Shown: positions 1,605 through 20,983, numbered from the stretch's first letter. The stretch is DNA of 64,000 nucleotides from an uncultured Actinomycetes bacterium (GCA_963755335.1 CAVWJW010000008.1:1305684-1369683), one strand, 5' to 3'. Notes: generated from the sequence alone by a model not told the origin. Program-made: numbers and translations.

Positions 1605-2373
1605 CCCAGGGTCGCACCGTGCTGGGCGGGTTACGGCGGCGGGCCGCCCGCGCGCTGACGACCATGCGCAGCGACCTTCGGTCCGTCGTGGAACGCGATC
1701 CTGCCGCACGTACCGAGGTCGAGGTCGCCCTCCTGTACCCGGGAGTCCACGCGGTGTGGGCCCATCGGGTCAGCCACGCGCTCTGGCGCAAGGGGGCGCA
1801 CCTGCCCGCCCGCACGATCTCCCAGGGCGCTCGCTTCCTCACCGGGATCGAGATCCACCCGGCGGCCGACGCTCGGCCCGCGGCTCTTCATCGACCACGG
1901 CATGGGCGTGGTCATCGGCGAGACGGCGATCGTCGGCGCCGACGTCACGATCTACCACGGCGTCACCCTCGGCGGCACGAGCCTGGCCACGGCAAGCGCC
2001 ACCCGACCGTCGGCGACCGCGTGACGATCGGCGCGGGGGCCAAGGTCCTGGGCAACCTCGTCGGTGGGCGACGACTCACGGATCGGCGCGAACGCGGTGC
2101 TGGTGCGATCCGTCGATGACCACTCCGTGGTCGTCGGCGTACCGGGCCAGGTCATCGCGCACGGCATCACGTCGGAGCCCGATACCCGCCCGAAGCAGGA
2201 CTCGCCCGACGGCTCCCGATCCGGTGGGCCTGGCCGTCTCGACGCTGCTCACGCGGGTGGATCGACTGGAGGAGGAGGTGCTCGGTCACGAGCACGAGCA
2301 CCACAAGAGCCCGCAGAAGACCGCCAGCGGTGAATGGGAACTCGACTGGCGGGTCAGCGACTTCTCGATTTGA
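1601..2373 (+). CDS. cysE: Serine O-acetyltransferase, frame broken about 4 times
   Basis: GTG 1601 overlaps the cysK stop (GTGA). Hexapeptide-repeat blocks [54 protein letters not shown] and [29 protein letters not shown] lie in different frames. Single-base indels near 1868, 1985, 2062 and 2216. Confidence 0.75.
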
Positions 2374-2382
2374 CGCCCGGGC

Positions 2383-2406
2383 ACGCTCCACCGCAGCGTG
2401 GAGCGT
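2383..2406. terminator. Hairpin between convergent cysE and transporter genes (candidate bidirectional terminator)
   Basis: Perfect 9-bp arms ACGCTCCAC / GTGGAGCGT with a 6-nt loop, located between the two stop codons. No clear U-tract. Confidence 0.35.
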
Positions 2407-4050: not shown

Positions 4051-4133
4051 TATTGCGGGTCGACGCCTGCAAACGCTTACGTCACCGGCGTGACGTCACT
4101 CACGCGGCCCTGCATCGCCCGCCCGCCCGCACG

Positions 4134-5836
4134 TCAGCCGGCGGTGCCGGCGTCGTGGCCCTCGAGGACCAGCCCGTAGGCGACGGCCCATCGATGGTCG
4201 AGGGTCCCCGCGACTCTCGCCCGCCCGACCGTGACGTCGCGCAGGGTCGGTGCCAGGGCCTCGAGCAGCTCGTCATCGCCGGCCGGCCCACCGGTCACGA
4301 CGACCTGGCTGGGCCGCGCAGACGGGTCCACAGCAGCGAGGAGCCGGGTGAGGTTGTCGGCGAACACCCACCGCTTCAGGGACAGGCGCAGCGATCGCCA
4401 TTCGGCCAGCGACAGGCTGCGCGAGAACGGCAGGTCGCCGCTCGGCCCCCGCACGACGAGCCAGCCGACGGTGCCATGCGGCGCGGCGGAGTCCAGGAAG
4501 CGTCGCTCGCCGGACTCGTCGGAGACCACGTGCGGAGCGTCCACGCGGCTTGCCGGGCCGCGCTTCACCCACTCCGCGGCGCCACCAGAGATGGCGAGGG
4601 CATGACGGGTTGCGGCGGTCATCAGCTCGCCGCTGCCGGCCGCTGTGGCGCTGCGGCCATGGGAGTCGATGAGGTCGACCGTGCCGCCCCCGAGGTCGAG
4701 CACCCACGCGTCCGCGCTCGCGCCGGGGGTCGTGAGCGAGCCGCGTCGGCTCGCGGTTCCCTCGTCGCTGATCACCTCGACGGCTCCGCTCCACTCGCGG
4801 GCGAACGCGTCCGTGCCCTCCGTGGACCAGCGGTCGGCTGCGAGGGACGACACGACGAGGGACTGCTCGCGCACCGTGCCGGCTCGAAGCCCCGGCAGAT
4901 CGCTGACGTCGGTGAGGTCCACCAGCCACAGGTCGTCGACCCGCTCGTGCGCGCCCCCAGGTGCGCGCAGCGACCGAACCGCCGGGAGGGTCAGCTGCAG
5001 GAGGATAGACCGGGCCGACGGCAGGTCGACCTCGCGGTCGTCCCGCAGCAGCACGCTGCCGCGGTCGGCGACGACCGCGCCCTCCGGCGCCGCCGACTGG
5101 CGAAGCCGCCCGATCACCGCGTCACGGTGCCCGCGGGTAACGGCCGCCGCAGACACGGCATGACGCTGCTCGTCGAGGGCCAGCTCCAGGGCGTGCACCA
5201 GCCAGAGCGGGTCGGCGAGCGTCGTGACGAGCTGCCCCGACCCGGCGACCTCCAGCGCGATGAGGTCGCAGGCGAGGGCCTGCGAGGGGTCGACGCAGTC
5301 GGCCACCGGCAGGGATCGCTCGAGGCGGGCAGCCACCAGGGCCGCCTCGTCCCCGGCCAGCAGCACGCCGGCGATGTCGCTGCGACGTGACTGCCAGGCG
5401 ACGATCGCGGCTGTCGTGGCCCGGAACCCCAGTGGATCCTCGGCGACGAGCACCAGCGGTCCGGCGCCGACCGTGGCGGGATCCGAATCGACCCGAACCG
5501 GGCGGCCGACGCCGCTGCCGGATCCTGCCGGGGTCGAGGCGCCGGTGGACAGGACCGTCAGACGACCTAGGTCGGCGGGGGCCTCAGGGACGTCGATCCG
5601 ACCGGTGTGCACGGGCCGCTGCGGGGTGACGAACACCGTCTCGATCTCGAGCGTTCCTCGTCTGGCCGCCCGCGCCAGCAGTGCGGCCGCCGCTCGCGCC
5701 GGACTCTGCCGAGCCCTTCCGGCCTCGAGTGGGAGCCCGTTCGGTCGACGACGACATGGGGAGGTGACGCCGAGACGTCGGCGACGACGACCTCGGTGGT
5801 CGAGTTCCCGATGTCGACACCGGCGACGAGCTTCAC
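4134..5836 (-). CDS. Diol/glycerol dehydratase reactivase, large (ATPase) subunit, 2 frame breaks
   Basis: N-terminus MKLVAGVDIGNSTTEVVVA matches the DdrA/PduG-type start (xIAGIDIGNSSTEV). The long C-terminal ORF 4134..5636 has LDLGGGTVDLID and VVVTGGPAGDDEL actin-fold ATPase motifs. GTG 5836 overlaps the upstream stop. Shifts near 5745 and 5700. Confidence 0.8.
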
Positions 5837-6189
5837 GCCAGCAGGCCGCGCGCCAGGTACGCCTGGGCTGCCTCCCGCACCAGTGCGGCGTTCAGCGGAG
5901 CGTCCCGCGCATCGAGGTCGCGCGCGATCTGCTCGAGCTGCGCGCCCGTGGACCGACGCGGGCGGAGTGCCTCGTAGATGGCCAGCACGAGGTCGTCAGG
6001 CAGGACGGACAGTTCCGCTGCGCGCCGGAAGTTCGCCGCCAGCTGCGGGTTGCCGTGGCTGGCCGCCACCTCTGCCTGGTGCTCGAGGGTCGACGGGTCG
6101 ATGCGGATGTCGTCCACGGCGACATCGCCACCGCGTACGGCGTCGAGCGTGATGTCGTCGACGGATCGACCGGACTTCGCGCGGGTCAC
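5833..6189 (-). CDS. B12-dependent diol/glycerol dehydratase small (gamma) subunit
   Basis: VTRAKSGRSVDDITLDAVRGGDVAVDDIRIDPSTLEHQAEVAASHGNPQLAANFRRAAELSVLPDDLVLAIYEALRPRRST aligns by eye with the PduE/PddC core (LDDLTLENV...MRITPETL...NFERAAEL...PDDRILEIYNALRPYRST). GTGA overlap with the beta stop at 6186. Confidence 0.8.
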   Translation of the reverse strand: MTRAKSGRSVDDITLDAVRGGDVAVDDIRIDPSTLEHQAEVAASHGNPQLAANFRRAAELSVLPDDLVLAIYEALRPRRSTGAQLEQIARDLDARDAPLNAALVREAAQAYLARGLLA

Positions 6190-8439
6190 GATCGCACCAC
6201 CTCCATCTCCTCCGGTCCCGCAGTCGGGTCGCACCACTGCCGTTCGATCGCCACCAGCGACACGACGGTCGTGTGGTACCGGGCCTCGATGGCCTCGTCG
6301 GAGTAGGGATTGCGCTCCGGCTCGGGCGTGGCCCCCTTCGCATGCCGACCTGCGTTGACACCGAGCTGGCGATAGGACTCCCGGCTCAGGCTCGGCGCGA
6401 CGGAGTACAGCTCGAGGTTCGCCAGCGGCGAGAGGTCGCGTCGGTGGATCAGGGCAGTGCCCTTGGCCTGCAGGCCGACGCCGATGCCGGAGCCCGAGAG
6501 GCGGGCGGCCGTCAGGCCGATGAGGCCGAGATCGATCGTGTCGTTGATGCGGACCACGCGGCCGACGCAGCCTTCCTCCTCTAGGCCGGCGAGCAGCTCG
6601 TCGAGTGCGTCGTCGACGGTGAGACCCGCTCAGGGTCTGCCAGATCGCCCGACCGGCCGCGGGGGAGACACCGATGACGACGTCACGGGGGTCGTCCCGG
6701 CGTTCGGCGGGACCGGTCGCCCTCAGGGTGCTGGAGGCGTGCTCCTGCTGCTGGGCGCGAAGGTCGTCGACGGATCGCTGCTGACGGATGGCGTCGATCT
6801 CCCGCTGCCGCTGCGGCGTCGGCTCGTAGCCGGTGCCGGGGCCGGAGTAGTCGTTCGGATCCGTGACGAGGGACAGGATGTCCATCTCCTCGTTGAAGAT
6901 CGCCGCAGTCTGGAGATAGTCGCCGTGCACGCGGGCGTGCAGCATCTGCAGCATCCGCTCGGCCTCGACCTCGTAGCCGGCCTCGTCGAGGGCCCGGATG
7001 ACGTCGATCATGGTGATGTTGGTGTCGCGGATCAGGCGGGACGCCGACAACGGAGTCATCAGATCGGCGTCAGGGACGTCCTTCGAGCCCGCCGCGTCGA
7101 CCGCCTGCGCCGCCCAGGCATCGGTGAAGTCGCCGAGACCGAGGATGCGGTACACGTCGCGTACCGCGGCGACGGCCCGTTCGCGCAGTGCGGCAACGTG
7201 CGGTTCGGCCGCTGTGCGCAGTCCGGCATCGACTCCCCAGTCGCGTTGCATGGCCAGGAAGTCGTCGATGTCCTCGGAGTTCCACTGGCTGGGCCCGAAC
7301 ATGTTGTCGTAGCGCTGGATGGAGCCGAAGCCGCTGCAGATGAAGTCGGAGCCGCCGATGAAGATCGGGTGCGTGCGTGACGTGCGCCGCACGTCGGACT
7401 CGCTCATCAGGGCGTCGTTGCCGGTGCAGGCCTCGAGGTTGCGCACCATCACCATGAGGTTCTCGGCCATCAGGCTGCGCACGCCACCGGGCACGGCGCC
7501 GGCGACAGACGCGGAGTCGATCCCGCCGTTCTGGACGCCCTGCGAGCCGATCGCCCGGGCGAGGGCGACGCAGCGGGACTCGAGGTAGAACATCGAGCAG
7601 CCTTCGGCGCTGCCCATCAGGGCCTCCGCGCCCCCGCCTGACGTCACGCGCATCTTGATGCCCCGGCTGGCATACGCCGAGGTCAGGAAGGCCTTCGACC
7701 ATGGGGTGTCGTCGCCGTCGATGAAGATCTGCTCGGTGCCGTACAGGGACACCGTCTCGGCGTACGACACGAGGCCGCGCATGCCCATCTCGAGCTCGAG
7801 GGCCTCCTCGACCGAGCACTGGACGAGGATCCCTGGCGAACCGACGGCCGCGCCGATGCTGACGGCGATGGCATTGGACGGAGCATCGCCGAGGACGGGA
7901 ACGGTCGTCTCGATCTCCCGGAAGCCGAAGGCGGCCGCGGTCGCGGCGTCCGCGGCCAGCAGCAGTGGGTCATCGGACCTGTTCGTCACATGGGCCTGGT
8001 TGCTCGGCGTGCGTCGGGCCCGGCACTTGGTCATCGCGAGGGTGAGCTCGGCCGGCCGCAGCAGGGTGAGGACGCAGGCGAGCTTGGCCGGCGTCATGCC
8101 GCTGGCCAGCCGCACGATCTCGGATCGTGGGACGCCCGGATCCACGATCATGCGGGCGAAGGCGAGGTCCGGGACGCCCATGGCCTCGTCGGCCACCGTG
8201 AGGTCGAGGCCGTGAGCGGCGATGAACGCGTCCAGGAGGTCGAAGTCCGCCGCCGCGCGCGAATCCATCTCCGTGACGCGGCCGTCGGTGATGACCAGCG
8301 AGGGTGCGGGATCCGCGGGGGAGGCGAACGCCATCAGTCCGAGTGCGGCGTCCTCGACGGCGAAGCCGTCGAGGTTCACGCGCTGCTCGTCCATGAAACG
8401 GAAGCGGCCGATCGGCCGCCGACCATCGCCCTCGCTCAT
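6186..8439 (-). CDS. B12-dependent diol/glycerol dehydratase, large (alpha) and medium (beta) subunits in one reading frame, 1 frame break
   Basis: Alpha part: FMDEQRVNLDGFAVED...VQCSVEEALELEMGMRG...SRGIKMRVTSGGG...FYLESRC...GNDALMSESD...QRDWGVDAGL. It runs without a stop into the beta motifs DVVIGVSPA...TLSG. After a shift near 6624 it continues ...RVVRINDTIDLGLIGLTAARLSGSGIGVGLQAKGTALIHRRDLSPLANLELYSVAP (6186..6557 frame). Confidence 0.8.
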
Positions 8440-8870
8440 GCGTCACGCTCCGTCTCGAAGGCAGCCCGTGCGGCCTCGGCGGCTGAACGGTCCTGGTTGG
8501 CCGAGCCACCGCTGACACCGACGCCGCCGACGACACGGTCACCGTCCCACAGCGGCAGCCCGCCGGCGAACGCGATGTAGCGGCCGGAATCGGCGGAGTT
8601 CATGCCGGCGAGCTCGGCACCGGGGGAGACCAGCGCCGTGAGCTCGTGCGTCGCGGACCTGTGCGCCACCGCCGTGAAGCCCTTGTCGCGGGCGAGGACC
8701 GGACCGGCGATCTCTGCTCCGTCCATGCGCTGGAACGCGATCAGGTGCCCGCCCCCGTCGACCACCGCCACGGAGACGAGGGCGCCGGCGGACGCGGCGC
8801 TGTTCAGTGCCGCCGCGCACATGCGTTGCGCCAGGGCCAGATCCATCTCGAAACGAGTCACCCGCGCCAT
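8436..8870 (-). CDS. DUF336 / GlcG / PduO-C-terminal-like (haem-degrading fold) protein
   Basis: 144 aa with VSVAVVDGGGHLIAFQRMDGA...ARDKGFTAVA...GGLPLWDGDRVVGGVGVSGG, typical of DUF336. ATGA overlap with the dehydratase start. Confidence 0.75.
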   Translation of the reverse strand: MARVTRFEMDLALAQRMCAAALNSAASAGALVSVAVVDGGGHLIAFQRMDGAEIAGPVLARDKGFTAVAHRSATHELTALVSPGAELAGMNSADSGRYIAFAGGLPLWDGDRVVGGVGVSGGSANQDRSAAEAARAAFETERDA

Positions 8871-9877
8871 GCTGCTGCGACCTTCCGCATCTGTTCATGC
8901 ATGCCGTTCATGGGTTGGACGGCTCCGAGCACGCTCTTCGGCACCTTGCACACGACTGTGTAGTTCGTGTCGACGACATTGGCGATCGGGGTGAGGGCCG
9001 CCTGCGACACGAGCTGGTAGGCGTCGATGATCGTCTGTCCGGTCAGCTCGGAGACCCACAGGACCATCTGCTGGTGCGCGATGCGGAAGGCGTCCTCGAG
9101 CGGGCGCGCCGATCCCGTCGTCATGACGAAGTCGTCGCTCTCGATGCGCGGCCAGGGAGTGGGGTGTCCGTGCACGATGTCGAGGACCACCGTGCTGTCC
9201 ATGGCGCACTCCACCGCCACGCCGCATGTCTCGCCCTCCCCCTGCCGGGCATGGCCGTCGCCCAGGCTGAACATCGCTCCGTCGACGTTGACACCCAGGT
9301 AGCAGGTGACCCCTACGCGCATCTCCGGCGTGTCCATGTTCCCGCCCCAGTCGCCGGGGGCCAGCGAGGAGCGCACTTCGCCGAGGGCGGGCGCCACACC
9401 GACGGTTCCGTGCATCGGATCGAGGGGGAGCGCGGCCGTGAAGGGAGTGTCCGCGGCCATGTAGCGGACCAGGGCCTCGGCCCGGTCGATCTCGTAGATC
9501 CAGGTGCGTTCCAGCAGTGCGCCGTGCAGCATCGCCGTCGTAGGTGTGGCCGTCAGCGACCCGAAGAACGGCACGGTGCTGCTGACACCCCACGCCTCGC
9601 GGGGCTCGATGGACACGAAGTGGACGGCGAGGGTGTCACCGGGTTGTGCGCCCTCGACGTAGAAGGGGCCGGACTGGGGGTTGAGCAGGCGCGGGTCGCA
9701 GACCTGGCTGGCGAGGTCGGACGTGCTGCGCACGCGGCCGCCGAAGCAGTCCATCGTCCACGTCGACAGGACCGTCCCGGGGCGGACGGACGCGACGGGG
9801 GGCACCCCGCCGAACGTGTAGGTGTAGGTGGTCGGATCAGCGTCGGCGTCGGGCTCCCAGCGAAGCTCCTCGGGCAC
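8858..9877 (-). CDS. Acetamidase/formamidase (FmdA_AmdA) family amidohydrolase
   Basis: LNPQSGPFYVEGAQPGDTLAVHFVSIEP...GDWGGNMDTPEM...GAMFSLGDGHARQGEGETCGVAVE are family hallmarks. Preferred start is GTG 9877, preceded by GAGGAGG. ORF 8858..9937 extends slightly further upstream. Confidence 0.8.
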   Translation of the reverse strand: MPEELRWEPDADADPTTYTYTFGGVPPVASVRPGTVLSTWTMDCFGGRVRSTSDLASQVCDPRLLNPQSGPFYVEGAQPGDTLAVHFVSIEPREAWGVSSTVPFFGSLTATPTTAMLHGALLERTWIYEIDRAEALVRYMAADTPFTAALPLDPMHGTVGVAPALGEVRSSLAPGDWGGNMDTPEMRVGVTCYLGVNVDGAMFSLGDGHARQGEGETCGVAVECAMDSTVVLDIVHGHPTPWPRIESDDFVMTTGSARPLEDAFRIAHQQMVLWVSELTGQTIIDAYQLVSQAALTPIANVVDTNYTVVCKVPKSVLGAVQPMNGMHEQMRKVAAAWRG

Positions 9878-9906
9878 GGTTCCTCCTCGCGAACGGTGGG
9901 GAAAGT

Positions 9907-9944
9907 CTGAGGGGTGCACGCCCGTCGGGCAATGCACCCCTCAG
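9907..9944 (-). other. Long perfect inverted repeat (RNA hairpin / attenuator candidate) between permease and formamidase genes
   Basis: CTGAGGGGTGCA (9907-9918) and TGCACCCCTCAG (9933-9944) are perfect 12-bp arms. The spacer holds a nested palindrome GCCCGTCGGGC (9920-9930). No U-tract. Confidence 0.4.
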
Positions 9945-9960
9945 CGAGTGTTTCAGCGGG

Positions 9961-11575
9961 TCAGCCCCGGCTGTGCGCTTCCTCGATCGTCGTCCGGCCG
10001 ATCTCGGCGTAGATCTCGGGGCGCTTCGCCTTCAGGTAGAGCGCGTACACGACGCCGATGAGGAACAGGCCGATGACGTAGTACGGCATCCACTGGAAGA
10101 CGAGGCTGTCGGCGGCCAGCCCGGCGGCGAAGCTGCGGTTGGACCACAGCAGGTAGAGGGCGTAGATCATGCCCGCGGCGCCGACGATCGGGGCGACGAG
10201 CGTCATGAGGAAGTTGCCCTTGTTCACCTTCTTGACCCAGAAGTACCAGATGACCGCGAAGGACGTGATCGTCTGGACGATGAGCACCATCGCCGTTCCG
10301 ATGAGCGCCAGGATGCCGTAGACGTTGACGTACGGAATCAGGTCAGGCGTGGCCTGCGGAACCCCGTTCGCGTCGGGCACGTACACGTTGGTGAACAGCA
10401 GGAACAGCACGCACAGCAGGAGCGTGATGCCGCTCTGCACGAACGACGCGATCGCCGGCGACCCGTGCTTGACGTTGACGTGGCCCAGGGTGTTGCGGAC
10501 CGAGGAGGCCACGCTCTCGCGTCCCATCGCGTAGAGGTACCGCGAGGCTGCGTTGTGGAAGGCCATCGCACAGGCGAACGAGCCGATCACGACGAGCAGC
10601 TTGTAGACGTTCTCGGCGAGGCCGCCGAGGTTCGCGTTGACGAGGTTGAGCCACAGGTCGACGGGCGAGGCTCCGGCGGAGACCTCGACCGAGGTCTTGG
10701 CGCCGTTGCCGACGACGACCATCCACGACATGAAGGTGTAGAACAGGCCGAGGCCGATGACTGCGATCATGGTGGCGAGGGGGACGTTGCGCTTCGGGTT
10801 CCTCGACTCCTCGCCGTAGACGGCGGTCGTCTCGTAGCCGACCCAGGACCAGAAGGCGAAGAAGATTCCGATGGCGGAGGCGCCTGCCGCGACGCTCGTG
10901 CCGAAGGCTCCTTCAGGCAGCGAGCTGAAGGCGGCTATCGGGTTCACCGTGTCGGCCGCCATGAAGCCGTCCGGACCGCCCTTGATCAGCACGGAGATGC
11001 CGAGGGAGGCGAGCAGCAGCACCTCGCACACCAGGGTCACGCTCAGCACGCTGGCCGCGAGGGAGATGGAGAAGTAGGTGAGGAGCGCGATCACGGCGAT
11101 GCCGAGGATGGCGATCCAGATCCAGTTGATGGTCAGGCCCATCGGGAGGAAGACGTACTGCGAGGCGAAGTAGGCGAACCCGCCGATCAGCGAGCCCTCG
11201 AAGATGATGTAGGCGACGGCGGCGAGCATGCCCGGAGGCCATGCCCCAGACCTGGCCGAGGCCCTGCGAGATGAAGCCGTAGAAGGCGCCGGCCGTGGTG
11301 ACGTAACGGGCCATGGCCACGAAGCCCAGCGTGAAGATCGTGAGGACGATCGTGGCGAACAGGAAGCCGCCCGAGACGGCGATGCCGTTGCCGTAGCCGA
11401 TCGCGATGGGGACGTTGAAGCTCATGGCGGTGATCGGCGCCGCGTTCGCGACCGCCATGAACAGGACGCCGACCAGACCGACTGCCCCGACCTTGAGGCG
11501 GGCAGCCTCCTTGGTGTTCAGCTGGTGATCACCGGGCAGCGCATGCGGCCCGTCCTCGAGGTTGCTCGTGCTCAT
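9961..11575 (-). CDS. APC-superfamily amino acid/amine permease, 1 frame break
   Basis: Twelve-helix-type hydrophobic profile. N-terminus MSTSNLEDGPHALPGD...GAVGLVGVLFMAVANAAPITAM (10913..11575 frame) continues in 9961..11229 (MLAAVAYIIFEGSLIGGF...). Extra G near 11231. RBS GGGAGGA lies before ATG 11575. Confidence 0.8.
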
Positions 11576-11624
11576 GAACCGTCCTCCCGTGGCCGACCCG
11601 CGTGATGCAGGTCACGATTCGCGG

Positions 11625-11653
11625 AGTATGGCGCCATCCTTGGACCGTTACAA
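11625..11653 (-). promoter_or_regulatory. Candidate sigma-A-type promoter of the permease/dehydratase operon
   Basis: On the minus strand: TTGTAA, 17 nt, CATACT, about 50 nt upstream of ATG 11575. Located in the only AT-enriched stretch of the locus. Confidence 0.3.
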
Positions 11654-11670
11654 GCATTTCCACGTATTCC

Positions 11671-11817
11671 GGTCTGGAATTATCCCGATGGAAACACCGA
11701 AACGGTCTGTTAACCGTCCGGCAACACGCCAGAGACCACACCGATACGTTGAACATCCGGATTCGTTCACGAGGGGGCGAGGACTTTAGTCCTCGTTTAC
11801 GGTATTGATTTGGTCTG
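11671..11817. promoter_or_regulatory. Three GGTCTG boxes (candidate GntR/HutC operator half-sites) in the divergent BMC control region
   Basis: GGTCTGGAATT (11671), ACGGTCTGTTAACCGT (11702-11717, arms ACGGT/ACCGT) and TTGGTCTGCCAA (11811-11822, arms TTGG/CCAA). The third box lies in the spacer of the plus-strand promoter. TGGTCT is the half-site I recall for the HutC-subfamily regulator DasR. Confidence 0.35.
11778..11795. promoter_or_regulatory. 18-bp near-perfect palindrome upstream of the BMC operon promoter
   Basis: CGAGGACT-TT-AGTCCTCG with 8-bp perfect arms, ending 10 bp upstream of the candidate -35. Confidence 0.35.
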
Positions 11818-11832
11818 CCAATTCGGTATGGT
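11805..11832 (+). promoter_or_regulatory. Candidate promoter of the BMC enzyme/shell operon; implies a leaderless mRNA
   Basis: TTGATT (11805-11810), 16 nt, TATGGT (11827-11832). The in-frame GTG at 11839 lies 7 nt after the -10, and GTG 11833 abuts it. No Shine-Dalgarno sequence is present. Confidence 0.3.
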
Positions 11833-13153
11833 GTGCGGGTGACCGACCAGGCCGAAGCGGCGCCGGAGTACGACTACGGGCTGTTCACGTTCTCCTCCAA
11901 GGCCGAGGTTCTCGACAAGGCGAAGGAGTACTGGAACCCGGGCAAGACCCAGTTCTGGATCGACTCCGGGGTGCCCCTGGTGATCGACCGGCGCGAGGGC
12001 TACTTCCTCTGGGACATGTCCGGCAAGCGGCTCATCGACCTGCATCTCAACGGCGGCACCTACAACATCGGCCATCGCAACCCTGAGGTCGTCCAGGCGC
12101 TCACCGTGGCGATGCAGCACTTCGACATCGGCAACCACCACTTCCCGGCGCTGGCCCGCACCGCGCTCGCCGAGGCGCTGATCGCGTCAGCACCGGCCGG
12201 CCTCTCGAAGGTGATGTACGGCAGCGGCGGCGGCGAGGCGATCGACATCGCCCTGAAGACGGCGCGCAACGCCACGCAGAAGCGCAAGATCGTCTCGATC
12301 ATCAAGGCCTATCACGGTCACACGGGCCTCGCCGTCGGCGCCGGCGACGAGCGGTTCTCCAAGTTCTTCCTCGCCGACCAGCCGGAGGACTTCCCGCAGG
12401 TTCCCTTCAACGACCTCGAGGCGATGGAGGACGCGCTGCGCGGGCGCGATGTCGCCGCCGTGATCATGGAGACGATCCCTGCGACGTTCGGCTTCCCGCT
12501 GCCTGAGCCCGGCTACCTGCGGGCCGTCAAGGCACTGTGCGAGCAGTACGACGCGCTGTACATCGCCGACGAGGTGCAGACCGGACTCATGCGCACGGGC
12601 GAGCTGTGGGGCATCACCAAGGAGGGCATCGAGCCCGACATCATGGTGACCGGCAAGGGCATCTCCGGCGGCATGTACCCGATCGCCTGCGTGCTGGCCA
12701 GTGACGCCGCCGCTGGGTGGCTCACCGAGGACGGCTTCGCGCACATGTCGACGTTCGGCGGGGCGGAGCTCGGCTGCATCGCGGCGATGAAGGCCCTGGA
12801 GATCTGCTCGCGCACCGAGACCCGCTCGATGGTCCACTACATCGCCGACCTGATCGGCTCGGGCCTGCGCTCGATCCAGGCCGACGTACCCCGACTGGTT
12901 CATCGGCATCCGCCAGAACGGCGTCATCTTCGGACTGGAGTTCAACGACCCGCAGGGCGCCAAGTACGTGATGCGGCGGCTGTACGAGAACGGCGTGTGG
13001 GCGATCTTCTCCACCCTCGACCCGCGGGTGCTGCAGTTCAAGCCGGGGATCCTGCTCAAGCCGGAGGTCGCCGAGGAGGTCCTCGACCGCGTGGAGGTCG
13101 CCATCGGCCTGGCCTACCGCGACGTGACGGGTGCCGGGGGTGGTCGTCGATGA
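11833..13153 (+). CDS. Class-III aminotransferase-fold PLP enzyme (putative 1-amino-2-propanol O-phosphate phospho-lyase), 1 frame break
   Basis: LWDMSGKRLIDLHLNGGTYNIGHRNPEV...GSGGGEAIDIALKTAR...YHGHTG...ADEVQTGLMRTGELWG...DIMVTGKGISGG (PLP-Lys context). The true C-terminus YPDWFIGIRQNGVIFGLEFNDPQGAKYVMRRLYENGVWAIFS...GGGRR is in the 12968..13153 frame (shift near 12886). The real start may be GTG 11839. Confidence 0.8.
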
Positions 13154-14710
13154 CCGCGCTGCTGGCGGACATACCACTGGAGCCGGCCGGCGTGCCGCGC
13201 GGTCGGGCCATGGTCGAACGCGCCGAGTGGGCCGCCCGGGCGTTCGCCTCCTACGACATCGAGACCGTGCGTCGCATCGCCAAGGCCGCGGCAGAGGCGG
13301 GCGAGAAGCATGCGCGGACGTTCGCCGAGGACGCGGTCGCCGAGACCGGCTTCGGCGTCGCGGAGCACAAGGTCCTCAAGAACGTGGCCTGCTCCATCGG
13401 CATCTGGAACACCTACGGCGGCAATGACTACGTGACACCCGTCGTCCACGACGACCAGCGGGTAGTCGAGATCCCGCGACCGGCGGGAGTCGTCTTCGCC
13501 CTCACGCCGTCGACCAACCCCGTGGCCACCACCTACTTCAAGATCATGCTCGCCCTCCTGACGCGCAACGCGATCATCATCAGCCCGCATCCCTATGCCA
13601 AGAAGGTCTGCGCCGCGGCAGCACGGGTCATGGGCGACGCCGCCATCGAGGCGGGCGCACCCGACGGGTGCATCCAGGTCGTCGAGGAGCCTTCCGTCCC
13701 GCTGATCGATGCGGTGATGTCGGATCCCCGCGTCGATGTCATCGTCGCGACGGGTGGGACCCCGATGGTCCGGGCGGCCTATCGAAGCGGCAACCCCGCG
13801 CTCGGCGTCGGTCCGGGCAACGTCCCCGTCCTGGTCGATGCCACGGCCGACCTGGCGATGGCGGCGCGTCACCTGGTCGCGAGCAAGGCGTTCGACAACT
13901 CGATCCTGTGCACCAACGAGTCCGTCGTGATCGTCGAGGAGAAGGTGGCCGCACCGTTCGCCGCCGCCCTTCGGCGTGAGGGCGCCTACGTCCTCGAGGG
14001 TGAGGAGATCGATGCCGTCCGGGGGGTGATCTTCGAGGGAGACCACTTCAACGTCGCTTGGGTCGGCCGCTCGGCCCGCCAGATCGCCGAGGCCGCCGAG
14101 GTCAAGGTCCCGGCGAACACGCGGATCCTCGTGGCGCCGTTCCCGATCGTGGTGCCGGAGGAGATGCTCGCCCACGAGAAGCTCTGCCCGGTTCTCGGCC
14201 TGGTGACGGTGCCGAGTGCATCGCGAGGGATCGACGCCGCCAGGGCCGTCCTGCGCATCACCGGCGCCGGGCACAGCGCGGCGATCCACAGTGCGGATCC
14301 GGGCACGGTCATGGCCTTCGCGGCCGCCGTACGGGTGCTTCGCGTGTCCGTGAACGTCGGCAACAGCCTGGGCGGCGCGGGCATCGAGACGAACCTGGCC
14401 CCGTCGATGACCATCGGCACCGGGTTCTTCGGCGGCTCGTCGCTGGGCGAGAATCTCGAGCCCAAGCACCTCGTCGACATGACCCGTATCGCGTACAACG
14501 CGGACACCCGTGTGCCCATGCCGAGCTTCGCCGACCTGACGCCCTGGGCGGCGCCCACGGGGGTCGTCCCGGCGTACCCGTTCGCGTCGAACCTGGCCGA
14601 CGCGCCGCGCCTGGTGCCCCCCACCCCGACCCGATGACGGGACCGGCGAGCTCCGCGAGGAGATCCGCCGACTCGTCGTCGAGGAACTACGACAGATCAT
14701 CAAGGGCTGA
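13150..14710 (+). CDS. CoA-acylating aldehyde dehydrogenase (EutE/PduP-like) with C-terminal encapsulation-peptide-like helix, 1 frame break
   Basis: ATG 13150 overlaps the upstream stop (ATGA). ALTPSTNPVAT...VATGGTPMV...GVGPGNVP...AFDNSILCTNES (catalytic Cys). After the C-run at 14617-14622 the frame shifts, and the gene continues PTPDDGTGELREEIRRLVVEELRQIIKG to the stop at 14708-14710. Confidence 0.8.
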
Positions 14711-14714
14711 CACC

Positions 14715-15317
14715 GTGGCTGAACTGCGCTCCTTCATCTTCCTGGACCGGCTCCAGCCGCAGACCATGTGCTACCTCGGCACCTGGGTCCGTGGCGCACT
14801 GCCGCGGGCGGACTACGCCGCCCAGATCATCGAGGTGGCGCCGGGGCTCGACATCGAGCCGCTCACCGACGTGGCGCTCAAGCATGCCCACGTGGGGGCC
14901 GGGATCCTCTTCGTCGAGCGGCAGTTCGGGTACCTCGAGATCCACGGCCCGACGAGTGCGGTGCGCAGTGCGGCGGACGCCGCCCTCGAGCAGCTGGGAG
15001 CCACCGCGCACAGCGCGATGCGCCCGCAGATCCTCGCCTCACGCATCGTGCCGAAGATCGACCGTCAGCACGCGTTCCTCATCAACCGGAACAAGATCGG
15101 GTCGATGGCGCTGCCGGGGGAGTCGATGTTCGTCCTCGAGATGCAGCCGGCCAGCTACGCCATCCTCGCCGCGAACGAGGCGGAGAAGGCCGCTCGCGTC
15201 AAGGTCGTCGACTACCGCATGGTCGGTGCCACTGGTCGCGTGTACCTGACCGGGACCGAGTCCGAGGTGCGGGCCGCGGCCGAGGCCGCCGAGGCCGCGC
15301 TCCAGGCGGTGGCGTGA
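14715..15317 (+). CDS. Two-domain BMC shell protein (BMC-T-like, EutL/PduB-type permuted fold), paralogue 1
   Basis: GTG 14715. About 200 aa with two similar halves (IIEVAPGLDIEPLTDVALKHA...[16 protein letters not shown] and [42 protein letters not shown]). The second half resembles the EutL C-terminal domain by eye. Sits between cargo and shell genes. Confidence 0.6.
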   Translation: MAELRSFIFLDRLQPQTMCYLGTWVRGALPRADYAAQIIEVAPGLDIEPLTDVALKHAHVGAGILFVERQFGYLEIHGPTSAVRSAADAALEQLGATAHSAMRPQILASRIVPKIDRQHAFLINRNKIGSMALPGESMFVLEMQPASYAILAANEAEKAARVKVVDYRMVGATGRVYLTGTESEVRAAAEAAEAALQAVA

Positions 15318-15662
15318 TGACGACTAGCGGTCCTGTCTCGAACGACCTGCTGCGGGAGGTGATCCGCGACGTCGTCCGCGAGGTCATCCGGGAGGTGGTG
15401 GCCGAGGAGATCGCCGCGGCGTCCCTCGCCCGCACGGTCAGCCCAGGAGCCCCCACGCCGGCGAGCGGCGGTCGCCTCGGGCAGCCCGGCAGGTTCCGTG
15501 TCAGGCGCGACCCGGCTCGAGCGCGGGGCGCTCACCGAGCGGCATGTCCGCGCCGCCGGTCCGTCCGCCACCATCACCATCACGCGGGCCGTCGTGGTCA
15601 CGCCGCTCGCCAAGGAGCGCGCCAAGGCCATGGGCGTCGAGATCATCCGGATCGAGGAGTAG
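15317..15662 (+). CDS. Small (~114 aa) BMC-locus protein with N-terminal encapsulation-peptide-like amphipathic helix, 1 frame break
   Basis: ATG 15317 (TGATG overlap). N-terminus MTTSGPVSNDLLREVIRDVVREVIREVVAEEIAAAS, then a P/G/A-rich linker. The C-terminus lies in another frame (shift about 15485-15500): ...LERGALTERHVRAAGPSATITITRAVVVTPLAKERAKAMGVEIIRIEE, stop at 15660-15662. Confidence 0.55.
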
Positions 15663-15670
15663 GAGTCACC

Positions 15671-15928
15671 ATGCTGCGTGCACGAGTGGTCGGAAACGTG
15701 TGGTCGACCCGCAAGGTGTCGTCGATCCCCAACGGCGCCTTCCTGGAGGTCGAGGTGGAGCCGGGCGGCTCCCGCCTCATCGCGTTCGACGTGCTCGGAT
15801 CCGGCATCGGCGAGGCGGTGCTCGTGTCCACGGGCTCGGTCGCCGCGTCCTGGTTCCCCGGCGAGGCACCGCCCATCGACGCCCTCATCATCGGCTCCAT
15901 CGACGAGAGCGGCAGCCCGACTGCGTGA
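15671..15928 (+). CDS. BMC-P pentameric vertex protein (EutN/CcmL family)
   Basis: [29 protein letters not shown]...[23 protein letters not shown]. 85 aa. RBS AGGAG at 15661-15665. Confidence 0.85.
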
Positions 15929-15977
15929 CCGCAGCGGCCACGAACATCCACGAGCTCATCAACAGAAGGGAAGCACC

Positions 15978-16259
15978 ATGTCCAACAACGCGATCGGCAT
16001 GATCGAGACCAGGGGATACGTCGCGGCGCTCGCCGCGGCCGACGCCATGGTCAAGGCGGCCAACGTGACCATCGTCAGTCGCGAGCAGGTCGGCGCCGGG
16101 CTCGTCGCGGTGACCATCTCGGGCGACGTCGGCGCCGTGAAGGCCGCCACCGAGGCGGGCTCCGAGGCCGCCAGCCAGGTCGGCGAGCTGGTCAGCGTCC
16201 ACGTCATCCCGCGCCCGCACTCCGAGCTCGCCAAGAACTTCAGCGTCAGCGCACAGTGA
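15978..16259 (+). CDS. BMC-H hexameric shell protein (single PF00936-type domain)
   Basis: [61 protein letters not shown]...VHVIPRPH is the canonical BMC-H sequence. 93 aa. Confidence 0.92.
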
Positions 16260-16915
16260 CCGCGAGCGGCCTCACCGCTTCCGCGTCGCCTGAGCTCCGG
16301 GTCTACCTGCAGCTGGAGGACCTCCAGCCGCAGTTCGCCGCCTACCTCGGCACGCCGACGCGGGCACGCGGCTACCCGCCCTACGCGGGCCAGCACGCGC
16401 TCATCGTCGAGGTCGCGCCGGGCCTGGCGATCGAACGGGTGACCGACCTCGCCCTGCGATCCGTGCCGGACGTGGTGCCGGGGATCCTGTTCGTCGAGCG
16501 CCAGTTCGGCGTCCTCGAAGTGCATGCCGACGACCTCGACCAGGTGCAGGCGGCCGGGCGGGCGATCCTCGACGGCATCCATGCCGAGGCCGACCATCAG
16601 CTGCGCCCGCGGATCCTCTTCCACGACGTCGTCGAGGACATCACCGACCAGCATGCCGTGATCATCAACCGCAACCGGCAGGCCTCCATGCTGCTTCCCG
16701 GGCAGAGCCTGCTCGTGTTCGAGATGACGCCAGCCCTCTTCGCTGCCATGGCGGCGAACGAGGCCGAGAAGGCGGCCCCCGACATCACGCTCGTGGATGT
16801 CCAGATGATCGGGGCTGCCGGCCGGGTCTACATCGGTGGCACGACGGAGTCCGTCGAGATCGCCCGCCAGGCCATCGGCGCGGCTTTGGCTGCGGTCATC
16901 GGTCGCGACCAGTAA
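16256..16915 (+). CDS. Two-domain BMC shell protein (BMC-T-like), paralogue 2
   Basis: GTGA overlap with BMC-H. Alignable over its full length with 14715..15317 (shared blocks [20 protein letters not shown], LRPx[19 protein letters not shown]). Confidence 0.6.
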
Positions 16916-16944
16916 CGTCCCGCACGAGTCGAAGGGGAGGGCCC

Positions 16945-17925
16945 GTGGACGATCCGGTGTCGTCGTTCGAGCAGTTCGCCCACGCGGCCCTGCCCGTGTA
17001 CGGCCTCGACCCGTCCGCAGAGGTCACCCTGCTGAACGTGTCGGAGAACGGCACCTTCCGCGTCGATGACCCCTCCCAGGGCAGATCGGTGCTCCGGGTG
17101 CATCGCACCGGGTACCACGCCAAGCAGGCCATCCGCTCCGAGCTGGCGTGGATCTCGGCGCTTCGCGCGGACGGCGTCGTCCGCACGCCGGCCTACCTGC
17201 CCACGCTCGGCGGGGACGACGTCGCGGCGGCGCGGCTGCCCGACGGGCAGGAGCGCTACGTCGTGCGGTTCGCCTGGGCGGACGGCATCGAGCCCACGGA
17301 GGACCGACTTGCGCAGGACTTCGAGCAGCTCGGGGCCATCACCGCCCGTCTGCACGAGCATGCGCGCCAGTGGCATCGGCCGACGGAGTTCACCAGGTTC
17401 GTCTGGGACTTCGACACCTCGTTGGGCGAGCGGGGCCACTGGGGGCGTTGGCAGGACGGCCTCGCCGTCGGGCCGCAGGAGGAGGAGATCCTCGGCAGGT
17501 GCGCCGACCTGCTGAGGAGTCGGCTGGCCCTCTACGGCACCGGACCGGATCGGTTCGGCCTCGTGCATGCCGACATGCGGCTGGCCAACCTCCTCGTGAA
17601 GGGAGACGACGTCACCGTCATCGACTTCGACGACTGCGGACTGTCGTGGTTCATGTACGACCTCGGCTCGTCACTGTCCTTCATCGAGCATGAGCCCTAC
17701 GTTCCCGAGCTGATCGACGCGTGGGTGCGCGGCTACCGAACGGTCACGACGCTGCCCGCCGACGACGAGGCGGAGCTGCCGACGTTCGTCATGCTCCGAC
17801 GGCTTCTGCTGGTGGCGTGGATCGGCTCGCACGCCGCCACCGAGACGGCGCAGTCCATGGGCGAGGAGTTCACGGCCACCAGCTGCACACTCGCCGAGGA
17901 GTACCTCAGCACAATGTCCCGGTGA
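16945..17925 (+). CDS. APH-fold (aminoglycoside phosphotransferase-like) small-molecule kinase; predicted 1-amino-2-propanol kinase
   Basis: Brenner/APH motifs [13 protein letters not shown] and VIDFDDCG. 326 aa. Position next to the shell genes and the SDR matches what I recall of the M. smegmatis RMM locus. Confidence 0.75.
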
Positions 17926-17936
17926 GAGGGGAAGGC

Positions 17937-18719
17937 ATGTTCACATCCATCGCGGGCCGCTCGGTGGTCGTCACCGGCGGGACCAAGGGCATCGGCAAGG
18001 GCATCGCGCGCGTGATGGCGAAGGCGGGCGCGCACGTCCTGGTGACCGGGCGCAACCGCGAGGACGCCGAGAGGGCCGTGCGCGAACTCGACGAGCTCGG
18101 CGCCGGCAAGGTGGCCTACTTCCTCGGGGATGTGGCCGACGCAGCCGACTGCCGGGCGATGGCGCAGGCGGCCGTCGACGCGTTCGGCGGTATCGACATC
18201 CTGTGCGCGAACGCGGGCATCTTCCCCGACGCCAAGCTGGTCACCATGACCGAGGCCGACATGGACCAGGTGTTCGACACGAACATCAAGGGCACCTTGC
18301 TGTCGGTCCAGGCATGCATCCCCGCGCTCACGGCCTCCGGGCGCGGGCGGGTGATCCTGACGTCTTCGATCACCGGACCGATCACCGGCTATCCCGGCTG
18401 GGCGCACTACGGCGCGAGCAAGGCGGCGCAGCTGGGCTTCATGCGGACCGCGGCCATCGAGCTGGCGCCCCGGGGAATCACCGTCAACGCCGTGCTGCCC
18501 GGCAACGTGGCCACGGAAGGCCTGGCCGAGCTCGGCGAGGAGTACCGCACGGCCATGGAGATGTCGATACCGCAGCGACGGCTCGGCGAGGTCGAGGACA
18601 TCGGGAACGCCGCGCTGTTCTTCGCCACTGACGAGGCCGCGTACATCACCGGGCAGGCCCTCGCGGTGGACGGCGGCCAGGTCCTGCCGGAGTCGCTGGC
18701 CGCGCTGGAGGCGATGTAG
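17937..18719 (+). CDS. Short-chain dehydrogenase/reductase; predicted aminoacetone / 1-amino-2-propanol oxidoreductase
   Basis: [15 protein letters not shown] (cofactor site), NAG, SSITG...YGASKAA (catalytic Tyr-Lys). 260 aa. Internal Met at 17937 of ORF 17721..18719. Confidence 0.75.
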
Positions 18720-18722
18720 CCC

Positions 18723-19540
18723 ATGGCCGATGCAGGGCTGGACGATCTCGGGGCCATCGGCCCCACCGGCGAGGAGGTGCGTCGGCGGATCGTCGGGATG
18801 GTCGAGCGCGGCACGCTTGCAGCCGGGCCAGAAGCTGGGTGCCGAGCGGGAGCTCGCCGTGAAGCTCGGGCGTCAGCCGGTCCACCCTTCGCCAGGCGCT
18901 CGCCTCCCTCGAGGAGGCCGGGATCGTCCGGCGTGTTCCGGGCCGCGGCGGCGGCACGTTCATCGCGTCCGCGAAGGTCGAGCGCGACCTGTCCCGCATC
19001 GTCGGGATCCCGATGCTCCTGCGCGACCAGGGCTTCACCGCCGGCTCCCGCGTCGTCAGCGTCAGCGTCACCACGGCCGGTCCCGATGCGGCCGAGGCGC
19101 TGGGCATCGCGGAGGCCGACTTCGTCGTGGACCTGGTGCGCATCCGGCTGGCCGACGGCGTCCCGATCTCGCTCGAGCACGCGGTGTTCCCGGCCGAGCT
19201 CGTACCGGGGCTTCCCGAGCGGGGTCTCGGCGGCTCGATCTACGAACTGTGCGACCGCGAGTACGGCCTTCGCCCGGACGAGGCGATCGAGCACATCGAG
19301 GTCGTCGCCGCATCACCCGACGAGGCGTCGATCCTGGCGATCGACGCCGGTGCGCCGCTGCTGTCCGTCACTCGCACCACCCGCACGGCCGAGGGGATCG
19401 CCTTCGAGTACTCGCACGACCTGTTCCGTGCCGACCGCACGCGCATCAGCGTCAAGGTGAAGGGCTCGCCGACCACCGAGAAGGCACGGCTGCGCGGTCG
19501 GGTCATGGAGCTCGTTCCGCCGCACGACATCGATCAGTAG
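18723..19540 (+). CDS. GntR/HutC-family transcriptional regulator (wHTH + UTRA domain), 2 frame breaks
   Basis: LQPGQKLGAERELAVKLG and EEAGIVRRVPGRGGGTFIA (GntR wHTH), followed by the UTRA-like region ...DLVRIRLADGVPISLEHAVFPAEL...LLSVTRTTRTAEGIAFEYSHDLFRADRTRI. Shifts near 18815 and 18880. Confidence 0.75.
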
Positions 19541-19558
19541 TCAGGGCACGCTGGATAC

Positions 19559-20983
19559 ATGAACGCCACGCCCCGCGTCTGCGCGGTCCGGGATGACGCC
19601 CTGGGGGAGCACGATGCCGTCGGCCTCGTGAAGGCGGTCCACGCCCGCCAGGTCACGGCGGCCGAGCTGGTGGCGGCGGCCATCGACAGGGCCCGAAGCG
19701 TCGACCCGGCACTTCATGCCGTGGTCGCCTGGGCGGCGGACCCGACGTCGGCCACGGGGCCCTTCGCGGGGGTGCCGACCTTCATCAAGGACAACGAGGC
19801 GGTGGCCGGCCTCCCCTCGCGCTCGGGTTCGCGAGCGACCTCGGCCCGTCCGGTGGCGCAGTCCTCCGCCTTCGTCGAGCAGTGGCACGACTTGGGGCTG
19901 AGCATCCTGGGCACCTCAGCGATGCCGGAGTTCGGGCTGACGGCGTCGACCGAGTCTCTGCTGTCCGGTCCGACGCGCAATCCCTGGGACCTCACCCGGT
20001 CACCGGGCGGCTCGTCCGGAGGGTCCGCGGCGCTCGTGGCAGCAGGCGCGGTGCCGATCGCCCATGCGAACGACGGAGGCGGTTCCATCCGCATCCCCGC
20101 AGCATGCTGCGGGCTCGTCGGCCTTAAGCCCTCGCGCGGCCGGCTGCTCCTGCCCCAGGGACATGAGCGGCTCCCCGTCGCGATCGCCACGCAAGGACTC
20201 CTGACGCGCAGCGTCCGCGACACGGCGCGGTTCTATGGCGAGGCGGAGAGGCAGGCCCAGGCCGGCTCCGCACTGCCGCCTGTCGGCGAGGTCGTCGGGG
20301 CGAGCCGCCGACGCCTGCGGATCGCCTTCGCTCCTGAAGGCCCGCCCGGGCTGCCCGTGGATCCCGACGTGCAGGCGGCGGTCGTCGGTGCCGCCCGCCT
20401 CCTTGATGCGATGGGGCATCATGTCGAGCAGGTGGCCTATCCGTTCGGTGAGCAGCTCGGTCGCGACTTCCTGCGCTATTGGGCTGCCCTGGCCTTCGCA
20501 TTGCAGTTCGGCGGGACTCCGGTGCACGGCCCCGACTTCGACGCTCGCCAGCTGGAGCCGTTCACGCTGGGCATGAGCAGGTTCTTCCGCTCCGTCGCGC
20601 CGCGCATGCCGGCGAGCATCCGGCGGCTTCGGCGGTTCGTGGACGAGTACCCGATCGCACTGGGTAAGGCCGACGTGCTTCTCACCCCTGTGACGTCGCA
20701 GGTGGCACCCATCATCGGGTTCCTCGCGCCGGACCTGGACCTCACCACTCACCTTGTGCGCCTGCTGCGCTACGCCTCCTTCACGATGGTGCAGAACGTC
20801 TCCGGCGCTCCGGCGATCTCGCTGCCGCTCGGCAGGAGTACCGACGGCCTGCCGATCGGCGTGCAGGCAGCCGCGCGACGAGGTGATGACGCGATGCTCA
20901 TCGAGCTCGCGTTCGAGCTGGAGGCGGCCGCCTCGTGGGGGAGGGCGCTCAGCGACGAAGGGCTGGCGCCATCGTCACCTTGA
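19559..20983 (+). CDS. Amidase-signature (AS) family amidohydrolase
   Basis: GVPTFIKDN...GGSSGGSAALVAAGAVPIAHANDGGGSIRIPAACCGLVGLKPSRGR is the canonical AS signature with the Ser-cisSer-Lys context. 474 aa, intact. Confidence 0.85.
   Translation: MNATPRVCAVRDDALGEHDAVGLVKAVHARQVTAAELVAAAIDRARSVDPALHAVVAWAADPTSATGPFAGVPTFIKDNEAVAGLPSRSGSRATSARPVAQSSAFVEQWHDLGLSILGTSAMPEFGLTASTESLLSGPTRNPWDLTRSPGGSSGGSAALVAAGAVPIAHANDGGGSIRIPAACCGLVGLKPSRGRLLLPQGHERLPVAIATQGLLTRSVRDTARFYGEAERQAQAGSALPPVGEVVGASRRRLRIAFAPEGPPGLPVDPDVQAAVVGAARLLDAMGHHVEQVAYPFGEQLGRDFLRYWAALAFALQFGGTPVHGPDFDARQLEPFTLGMSRFFRSVAPRMPASIRRLRRFVDEYPIALGKADVLLTPVTSQVAPIIGFLAPDLDLTTHLVRLLRYASFTMVQNVSGAPAISLPLGRSTDGLPIGVQAAARRGDDAMLIELAFELEAAASWGRALSDEGLAPSSP

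Follow-up and report, generated by a model that had tools for sequence, protein, structure and literature searches.

A small conserved gene in RMM-type microcompartment loci encodes a candidate PduM-like factor with a terminal module that recurs in PduM, EutQ and TIGR02536 proteins

The protein PduM is needed for proper assembly of the Pdu microcompartment, and its gene is immediately upstream of the BMC-P gene pduN in the pdu operon. The first 23 residues of PduM represent a functional signal sequence to the core, sufficient for targeting, and deletion of pduM, or of its signal sequence alone, results in partial separation of core and shell and in oversized compartments (PMC12108088). The same 2025 study describes pduN as a nearby locus to pduM and states that homologues of PduM are not known from outside Pdu loci (PMC12108088). 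EutQ without residues 1–100 no longer binds or co-purifies with the shell protein EutM (PMC4827028). The small gene described here, termed RMM-X (or X in gene orders), is at positions 15317–15662 of a 64,000-nt stretch of DNA from an uncultured Actinomycetes bacterium (GCA_963755335.1, CAVWJW010000008.1:1305684-1369683), referred to as the window. An earlier note on the window, made from the sequence alone, had described its product as a non-enzymatic protein with a helix like an encapsulation peptide, encoded inside a block of shell genes, and this description holds. Comparison with PduM and EutQ shows a well supported homology of a terminal module.

The product of RMM-X, with one surplus base in the window removed, is MTTSGPVSNDLLREVIRDVVREVIREVVAEEIAAASLARTVSPGAPRRRAAVASGSPAGSVSGATRLERGALTERHVRAAGPSATITITRAVVVTPLAKERAKAMGVEIIRIEE. 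It is predicted to be a three-part protein, with an encapsulation-type helix, a disordered linker of ~25 residues and an alpha/beta module of 45–50 residues. These parts are located as follows.

15317–15662, plus strand: RMM-X, the whole small gene, 346 nt, i.e., 114 codons, a stop codon and one surplus base.
15341–15433, plus strand: N-terminal amphipathic helix, residues 9–39, from AlphaFold2 (AF2) modeling and hydrophobic moment; near-invariant in alignment A1.
15434–15509, plus strand: variable linker rich in P, G, A and S, approximately residues 40–64, predicted to be disordered by AF2.
15510–15659, plus strand: C-terminal module, residues 65–114, in the frame of the TAG at 15660–15662.

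The AF2 model, based on a 49-sequence alignment, displays a helix at residues 9–39, a disordered segment at 39–63 (confidence score, pLDDT, below 50) and a compact unit at 65–114 (pLDDT ~90) in which the elements are in the order (beta) beta-alpha-beta-beta-alpha-beta. The hydrophobic moment is 0.6–0.71 for 18-residue windows that start at residues 6–12 and together span residues 6–29. Alignment, model and hydrophobic moment agree in characterizing the N-terminal helix as being of the encapsulation-peptide type, a predicted targeting signal. The helix peptide, SNDLLREVIRDVVREVIREVVAEEIAAAS, is read in the frame of the ATG at 15317, and its residue pattern resembles that of GELREEIRRLVVEELRQIIKG, the C-terminal tail of an aldehyde dehydrogenase (ALDH). 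This likeness, as well as the P/G/A-rich stretch that follows the helix, had been pointed out before; both are present, and the ALDH tail is itself in a shifted frame at 14630–14710. The linker shows no conservation and is of variable length in alignments A1 and A4.

The C-terminal segment had been considered unassignable, which is correct in that it belongs to no named family, but it can be identified as a recurrent microcompartment module. A profile of the last 49 residues matches 486 cluster representatives (clustered at 50% identity) with E ≤ 1e-3 among 1.84 billion proteins, which are labeled "hypothetical protein" wherever the source names them. The module is within ~35 residues of the protein C-terminus in all 150 matches listed. 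No Pfam or NCBIfam model covers the family: none of 128 diverse relatives has a match in Pfam, and scans of both RMM-X halves with Pfam and NCBIfam reveal no family-level match, only sub-threshold terminal ones. Among PDB sequences, neither the protein nor the module profile had more than chance matches, to ribosomal protein L18a and to a viral capsid protein.

The sub-threshold NCBIfam matches are always end-to-end in register, and they point to three microcompartment proteins. The C-terminus of TIGR02536 ("eut_hyp") is matched by 47 of the 128 relatives at positions ~138–206 of 207, mostly 161–206, with a best value of 2e-6. The C-terminus of PduM is also matched by relatives, the best stretch extending from positions 117–132 to positions 160–162 of 162, and the window's own RMM-X additionally matches positions 11–49 of 233 in EutQ. 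RMM-X is nevertheless not a member of these families. It scores 12.4 bits with the PduM model, where the cut-off is 179, and only with model residues 133–162; with TIGR02536 it scores 12.2 bits against a cut-off of 152.6, at positions 169–205 of 207 only. PF15953 has no match in RMM-X or its relatives, and there is no PF06249 match to the EutQ cupin domain, as RMM-X ends after the 50-residue module.

Direct comparisons agree with the terminal matches. An hhalign comparison of the RMM-X module with EutQ residues 4–47 gives a probability of 93.4% and a P of 2.6e-7 over 42 columns. The EutQ profile consisted of the N-terminus from E. coli K-12 and enterobacterial relatives, and is shallow because the search returned only near-identical enterobacterial fragments. 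AF2 modeling of the EutQ N-terminal fragment shows beta-alpha-beta-beta-alpha-beta at residues 3–48 (pLDDT 87–95), in the same order as in RMM-X. The module profile scores 21.1 bits with PduM residues 133–162, compared with a maximum of 9.7 in 200 shuffles (p about 1e-8; hhalign probability 82%). These profile comparisons give good support for homology of the module to the C-terminal ends of PduM and TIGR02536 and to the N-terminal end of EutQ. By this evidence, the new point is that one family ties together PduM, the EutQ N-terminus and TIGR02536 through a common terminal module, with RMM-X as a putative minimal PduM-like factor.

RMM-X, which had been called an orphan, is a typical representative of a family that is widespread but undescribed. 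A conceptual join of the two halves found 51 full-length homologues of 82–169 aa. All but one are 103–169 aa, and each of these has a single-frame open reading frame (ORF) that encodes both halves; the exception, P0038 (82 aa), has only the C-terminal half recognisable. The best homologue, P0001, is 89% identical over 100% of the provisional join (E 7e-50) and 96% identical to the corrected protein (alignment A4). RMM-X displays the family signature, i.e., the conserved N-terminal amphipathic helix together with the C-terminal motif RGALTER...VVTPLAxERAxxxGV.I (alignments A1 and A4). Both halves are under purifying selection: when each is read in its own frame and compared with four orthologues, the ratio of nonsynonymous to synonymous substitution rates (dN/dS) is 0.04–0.23 for the helix and 0–0.28 for the C-terminal module. 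Identity between RMM-X sequences is 37–75%, versus 72–96% for the neighbouring genes. RMM-X thus evolves faster, mainly because of its linker.

Most members of the family (P0040–P0051 and the greater part of alignment A5) are longer, at 150–260 aa, because helix and module are separated by a conserved middle segment, D.DL..FV...P..R..L..GR.RF.L. This segment has no family match. The RMM-X of the window is the shortest variant and is without it. One subgroup of the longer relatives carries a VPAPPVAAVLRPSTW motif and a terminal cysteine. In a further predicted protein, P0112 (181 aa, from a 654-bp ENA contig), a complete BMC-H domain is joined directly to the family's middle segment and C-terminal module. 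A fusion that occurs in nature would support a link between module and shell, but a deletion or an assembly artefact could also account for P0112, whose contig is very short.

The position of the gene is fixed. As had been noted before, the small ORF follows the first BMC-Tdp gene and precedes the BMC-P gene, and its ATG at 15317 overlaps the upstream TGA. The features that surround it are as follows.

13150–14710, plus strand: ALDH gene, with the C-terminal encapsulation peptide out of frame at 14630–14710.
14715–15317, plus strand: upstream BMC-Tdp shell gene, CsoS1D/CcmP-like (NCBIfam CcmP 8e-61; Pfam BMC match).
15315–15319, plus strand: TGATG overlap, in which the upstream BMC-Tdp stop codon (TGA) shares one base with the RMM-X ATG.
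15671–15928, plus strand: BMC-P (EutN/CcmL) vertex gene, which starts nine bases after the RMM-X stop codon.
15978–16915, plus strand: BMC-H gene (15978–16259) and second BMC-Tdp gene (16256–16915), which complete the conserved T-X-P-H-T cassette.

The earlier note had regarded absence of the ORF from other RMM loci as evidence against it. RMM-X is between the BMC-Tdp and BMC-P genes, in T-X-P-H-T order, in 24 of 24 other loci examined, and this position is kept in distant members, a metagenome-assembled genome (MAG) of Solirubrobacteraceae and contig L026. The one-base overlap geometry of TGATG is also present in contigs L001 and L003 and in a Logan contig (ERR15964289). The upstream BMC-Tdp is 96% identical to its L003 orthologue, and the ribosome-binding site of BMC-P, GGAG, overlaps the RMM-X stop codon. 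The full cassette order is ALDH, BMC-Tdp, X, BMC-P, BMC-H and BMC-Tdp, usually followed by an aminopropanol kinase (APH), a short-chain dehydrogenase/reductase (SDR) and GntR. It represents the aminoacetone (RMM/AAUM) locus described in Axen 2014 and in Sutter 2021.

In contig L026 (positions 1701–10807) the order ALDH-T-X-P-H-T adjoins a gene for a 1601-aa NAD-glutamate dehydrogenase, and no aminotransferase, kinase or SDR genes are nearby. The L026 compartment may serve a different pathway. The presence of the cassette without these enzymes implies that X travels with the shell genes and not with a particular enzyme.

A comparison of RMM-X with PduM (NF011957, TIGR04493, PF15953) shows that both are small and non-enzymatic with an N-terminal amphipathic helix, that the last 30–45 residues of PduM are homologous to RMM-X, and that both genes are directly upstream of a BMC-P gene (RMM-X extends to 15662, and BMC-P begins at 15671). 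They differ in operon and compartment type, and RMM-X is known from sequence and models. EutQ (PF06249, NF012001), the cupin and acetate kinase protein of ethanolamine utilisation, has its homologous module in residues 1–50 with the same predicted order of elements, but there the module is at the N-terminus and precedes a cupin domain, whereas in RMM-X it is C-terminal, has no cupin and is preceded by the encapsulation-type helix. In TIGR02536, a 207-residue model for proteins of Eut operons, the C-terminal 45 residues match and the proteins are also uncharacterised products of microcompartment loci; the likeness is limited to the terminal module (12–27 bits versus 152.6) and the locus is of another type. 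Compared with the encapsulation peptides (PduP, PduD and the ALDH tail), RMM-X has a similar residue pattern to the tail encoded 600 nt upstream, but its helix is ~30 residues and not ~18, and is attached to a 45-residue module instead of an enzyme. CcmN of the beta-carboxysome is likewise a non-catalytic organiser with an encapsulation peptide that links core and shell (established knowledge, cited in PMC12339742). CcmN differs in having no sequence or fold relation to RMM-X, a C-terminal peptide, and a body formed by a hexapeptide-repeat domain.

By analogy with PduM and EutQ, RMM-X is proposed to be a PduM-like structural tether of low abundance between core and shell, and not an enzyme, a proposal judged to have slightly better than an even chance of being correct. 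The helix would insert into the enzyme core, which is driven by encapsulation peptides, along with the ALDH tail. The C-terminal module would dock on a shell protein, either BMC-H or the adjacent BMC-P. RMM-X would in this way couple core to shell and influence closure or size. The tether appears to be the most economical model. RMM-X shares with PduM the two functional ends and the position upstream of BMC-P, but has only a flexible linker between the ends. Of the roles that had been suggested for RMM-X, that of shell-assembly factor is the favoured one, by homology to PduM and the EutQ N-terminus.

Several points weigh against the proposed tether. PduM has a body of ~100 residues between helix and module, where RMM-X has a disordered linker instead, and the EutQ deletion took 100 residues, which is more than the module alone. 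The match to PduM, EutQ and TIGR02536 is only ~40 residues in length and far below the cut-offs, and function may not transfer with it. The PduM sequence used in the comparison was validated as a PduM only by its full-length NCBIfam match (249.5 bits, cut-off 179); E. coli genomes searched by way of the window's dehydratase gene reached the dha (glycerol dehydratase) locus, which has no microcompartment genes, instead of pduM. In addition, a Foldseek comparison of the AF2 model with the PDB, a check that had been recommended for this segment, shows nothing at E ≤ 1e-3, the best match being eIF5B/IF2 domain III at E 0.09.

The weak PDB resemblance to IF2/eIF5B domain III, together with the compact alpha/beta unit and its invariant polar residues (ER of the TER motif, and T-P-L-A), would also fit a small ligand- or cofactor-binding or regulatory domain, in which case RMM-X would deliver or sense a metabolite in the compartment. 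This is improbable. No ligand-binding family is matched significantly, a unit of ~45 residues offers little room for a binding pocket, and the homologous region of EutQ is inside the N-terminal 100 residues, which are implicated in protein binding.

Another explanation of the same architecture is that of a cargo adaptor: the helix anchors in the lumen and the module recruits an enzyme that has no encapsulation peptide, such as the class-III aminotransferase/phospholyase, the kinase or the SDR. The arrangement of helix, linker and small binding module fits this equally well, and the ALDH is the only protein of the locus that shows an obvious terminal amphipathic tail. Moreover, the "EutQ-like" extensions of ~70 aa that Sutter 2021 lists for a MIC1/MIC2 dehydrogenase imply that a related module may sit directly on cargo in other loci. 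The adaptor is made less attractive by the L026 cassette, which has no adjacent aminotransferase, kinase or SDR, and the only experimentally shown partner of the homologous region is a shell protein, EutM (PMC4827028). It is regarded as unlikely, though less so than a ligand domain.

A broader, tentative extension of the tether proposal is that the beta-alpha-beta-beta-alpha-beta module is a general shell-docking domain of metabolosomes, and that RMM-X is its minimal natural form, consisting of helix, linker and dock. The module would then be present at the C-termini of PduM, TIGR02536 and RMM-X, in the N-terminal part of EutQ and, probably, in the "EutQ-like" extensions of MIC1, MIC2 and SPU6 loci as well. 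As the vertex-protein gene adjoins RMM-X in RMM loci and pduM in PDU loci, core-shell coupling or vertex closure may on this view be under the control of the module in many compartment types. If the link with PduM holds, the functional end of PduM belongs to a module found in at least four types of compartment, and RMM/AAUM has a pared-down form, 114 residues long, in which only two elements are folded. RMM-X would then be a much simpler subject for studies of binding and structure and for gene deletion in M. smegmatis, and its natural design of targeting helix, linker and dock could be borrowed for the engineering of synthetic compartments.

In the window as given, the two halves of RMM-X are in different frames. 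The frame of the ATG at 15317 reads MTTSGPVSNDLLREVIRDVVREVIREVVAEEIAAASLARTVSPGAP, and the C-terminal peptide LERGALTERHVRAAGPSATITITRAVVVTPLAKERAKAMGVEIIRIEE, which the earlier note had quoted, is present in another frame that ends at the TAG at 15660–15662. The break had been placed near 15490. It is located ~35 nt upstream of this and represents an assembly error.

15455–15457, plus strand: site of the surplus base, from MAFFT alignment and blastn gaps against contig L001; the placement is ambiguous within 3 nt.

The surplus base is directly 3' of a run of five C residues (15450–15454), in the G+C-rich linker. Contig L001, in which the gene is one intact ORF, has 97.3% identity with the window across 2250 bp, and there are only two gaps, both of which are single surplus bases in the window: one at ~14629, which detaches the C-terminal tail of the ALDH, and the other at 15455–15457 in RMM-X. 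Deletion of one base at 15455–15457 restores the 114-codon gene. A Logan contig from an independent run (ERR15964289) has a BMC-P identical to that of the window and, beside it, an intact RMM-X of 114 aa, which is exactly the length that had been estimated. It had also been asked whether the halves might be unrelated non-coding frames. The evidence speaks against this: the G+C content at third codon positions (GC3) is ~1.0 in the first frame over 15350–15440 and in the second frame over 15560–15650, so that both halves look coding, and dN/dS is low in each.

The mapping of proteins from L003, a syntenic relative, onto the window reveals at least eight frame breaks in the 6–26 kb region, at 6626 (dehydratase large subunit), 11232 (permease), ~12880 (aminotransferase), 14629 (ALDH), 15455 (RMM-X), 18842–18870 (two, in GntR) and 25328 (pyruvate:ferredoxin oxidoreductase, PFOR). 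This is a density of approximately one per 2.5 kb, and some breaks (PFOR, permease) are outside the microcompartment locus. Only those at 14629 and 15455 have been resolved at the base level, and both are single-base insertions. As the break at 15455 is one of at least eight in this region, it represents an assembly indel and not biology. The window looks like an unpolished long-read assembly, and any reading of it that is based on ORFs needs frame correction. An example is the long ORF at 11833–14637 in the raw sequence, which appears to fuse the aminotransferase with an ALDH that has no tail; this is due to the 1-nt insertion at 14629.

A different view of these breaks is that they are real and that RMM-X is a pseudogene of a locus that is decaying in this strain. 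The extra base is indeed present in the window as given, and seven other frame breaks are found in neighbouring genes. However, all the lesions are frame shifts, with no premature stop in the matched parts of the broken genes, purifying selection is found on both sides of the break, and genes outside the microcompartment locus (PFOR, permease) are hit as well. The same pattern is present in other long-read-style contigs, and the intact gene is found elsewhere beside an identical BMC-P. A decaying locus is therefore very improbable.

Still more remote is a programmed ribosomal frameshift, or the presence of two independent small ORFs, one for a peptide with the N-terminal helix and the other for a protein of 54 aa with GTG 15498 as its start codon. 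There is a GTG-initiated ORF of 54 aa at 15498–15662, and the first frame runs on without a stop into BMC-P, but long open frames are expected at 70% G+C. All homologues above 100 aa carry both halves in one frame. The break is in the least conserved part of the gene, without a conserved slippery site, and the gap is found in the window only. Programmed frameshifting, separate ORFs and a strain-specific pseudogene were rejected for the reasons given above. RMM-X is almost certainly a single conserved RMM gene that has been broken by an indel.

Split genes are found elsewhere too. In other long-read-style contigs RMM-X is divided into calls of 51–68 aa at the same position; examples are the truncated or split calls in the frameshifted contigs L028 (6001–6207) and L029 (5849–6156), with products of 68 and 51 aa. 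Products of 48–91 aa dominate the listing from a database search with a diverse module profile, from which no useful names were gained. Indels seem to concentrate in the G+C-rich linker, and this may explain why the family has been overlooked.

With respect to published descriptions, Sutter 2021 does not mention the small gene in its locus descriptions, and its table of hidden Markov models lists msmeg_0271, 0272, 0273, 0275, 0276 and 0277 but skips 0274. By gene order, 0274 is exactly at the position of RMM-X, a correspondence based on locus-tag numbering and not on sequence comparison. It lends only indirect support to the earlier note, which had mentioned an uncharacterised small gene at this place in the M. 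smegmatis locus. A genome scan with patterns from close relatives returned no mycobacteria. A literature search on the M. smegmatis locus, which did not extend to the Mallette and Kimber papers, found the small gene nowhere described. Supplementary Data 2 of Sutter 2021 lists the ~70-aa "EutQ-like" extensions on a pfam02866 dehydrogenase of the MIC1 and MIC2 loci and, in SPU6, an "EutQ-type" protein of ~130 aa without a Pfam assignment. The MIC1 and MIC2 extensions and the SPU6 protein may carry the same 45-residue module.

A scan of positions 11400–19600 for promoters and terminators shows sites that are no more numerous than in shuffled sequence, and none on the operon strand within 11833–19600. 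A single operon is thus not contradicted.

A complete RMM-type locus is also present in L008 (CAMDKJ010000002.1), a MAG titled Bifidobacterium breve, where it is 65–87% identical to those of freshwater Actinomycetota MAGs; the Bifidobacterium breve label looks doubtful. On the minus strand of the window, at 5836–8861 (and at 1–3550 in L002–L004), there is a B12-type diol dehydratase whose large and medium subunits are encoded as a fusion by a single 750-aa gene, with PF02286 plus PF02288 in the relatives L002–L004. The same minus-strand group (5836–8861) includes the dehydratase small subunit, a reactivase, an HbpS-like gene and an FmdA/AmdA amidase, and it resembles the "RMM2/PDU2" arrangement of Axen 2014.

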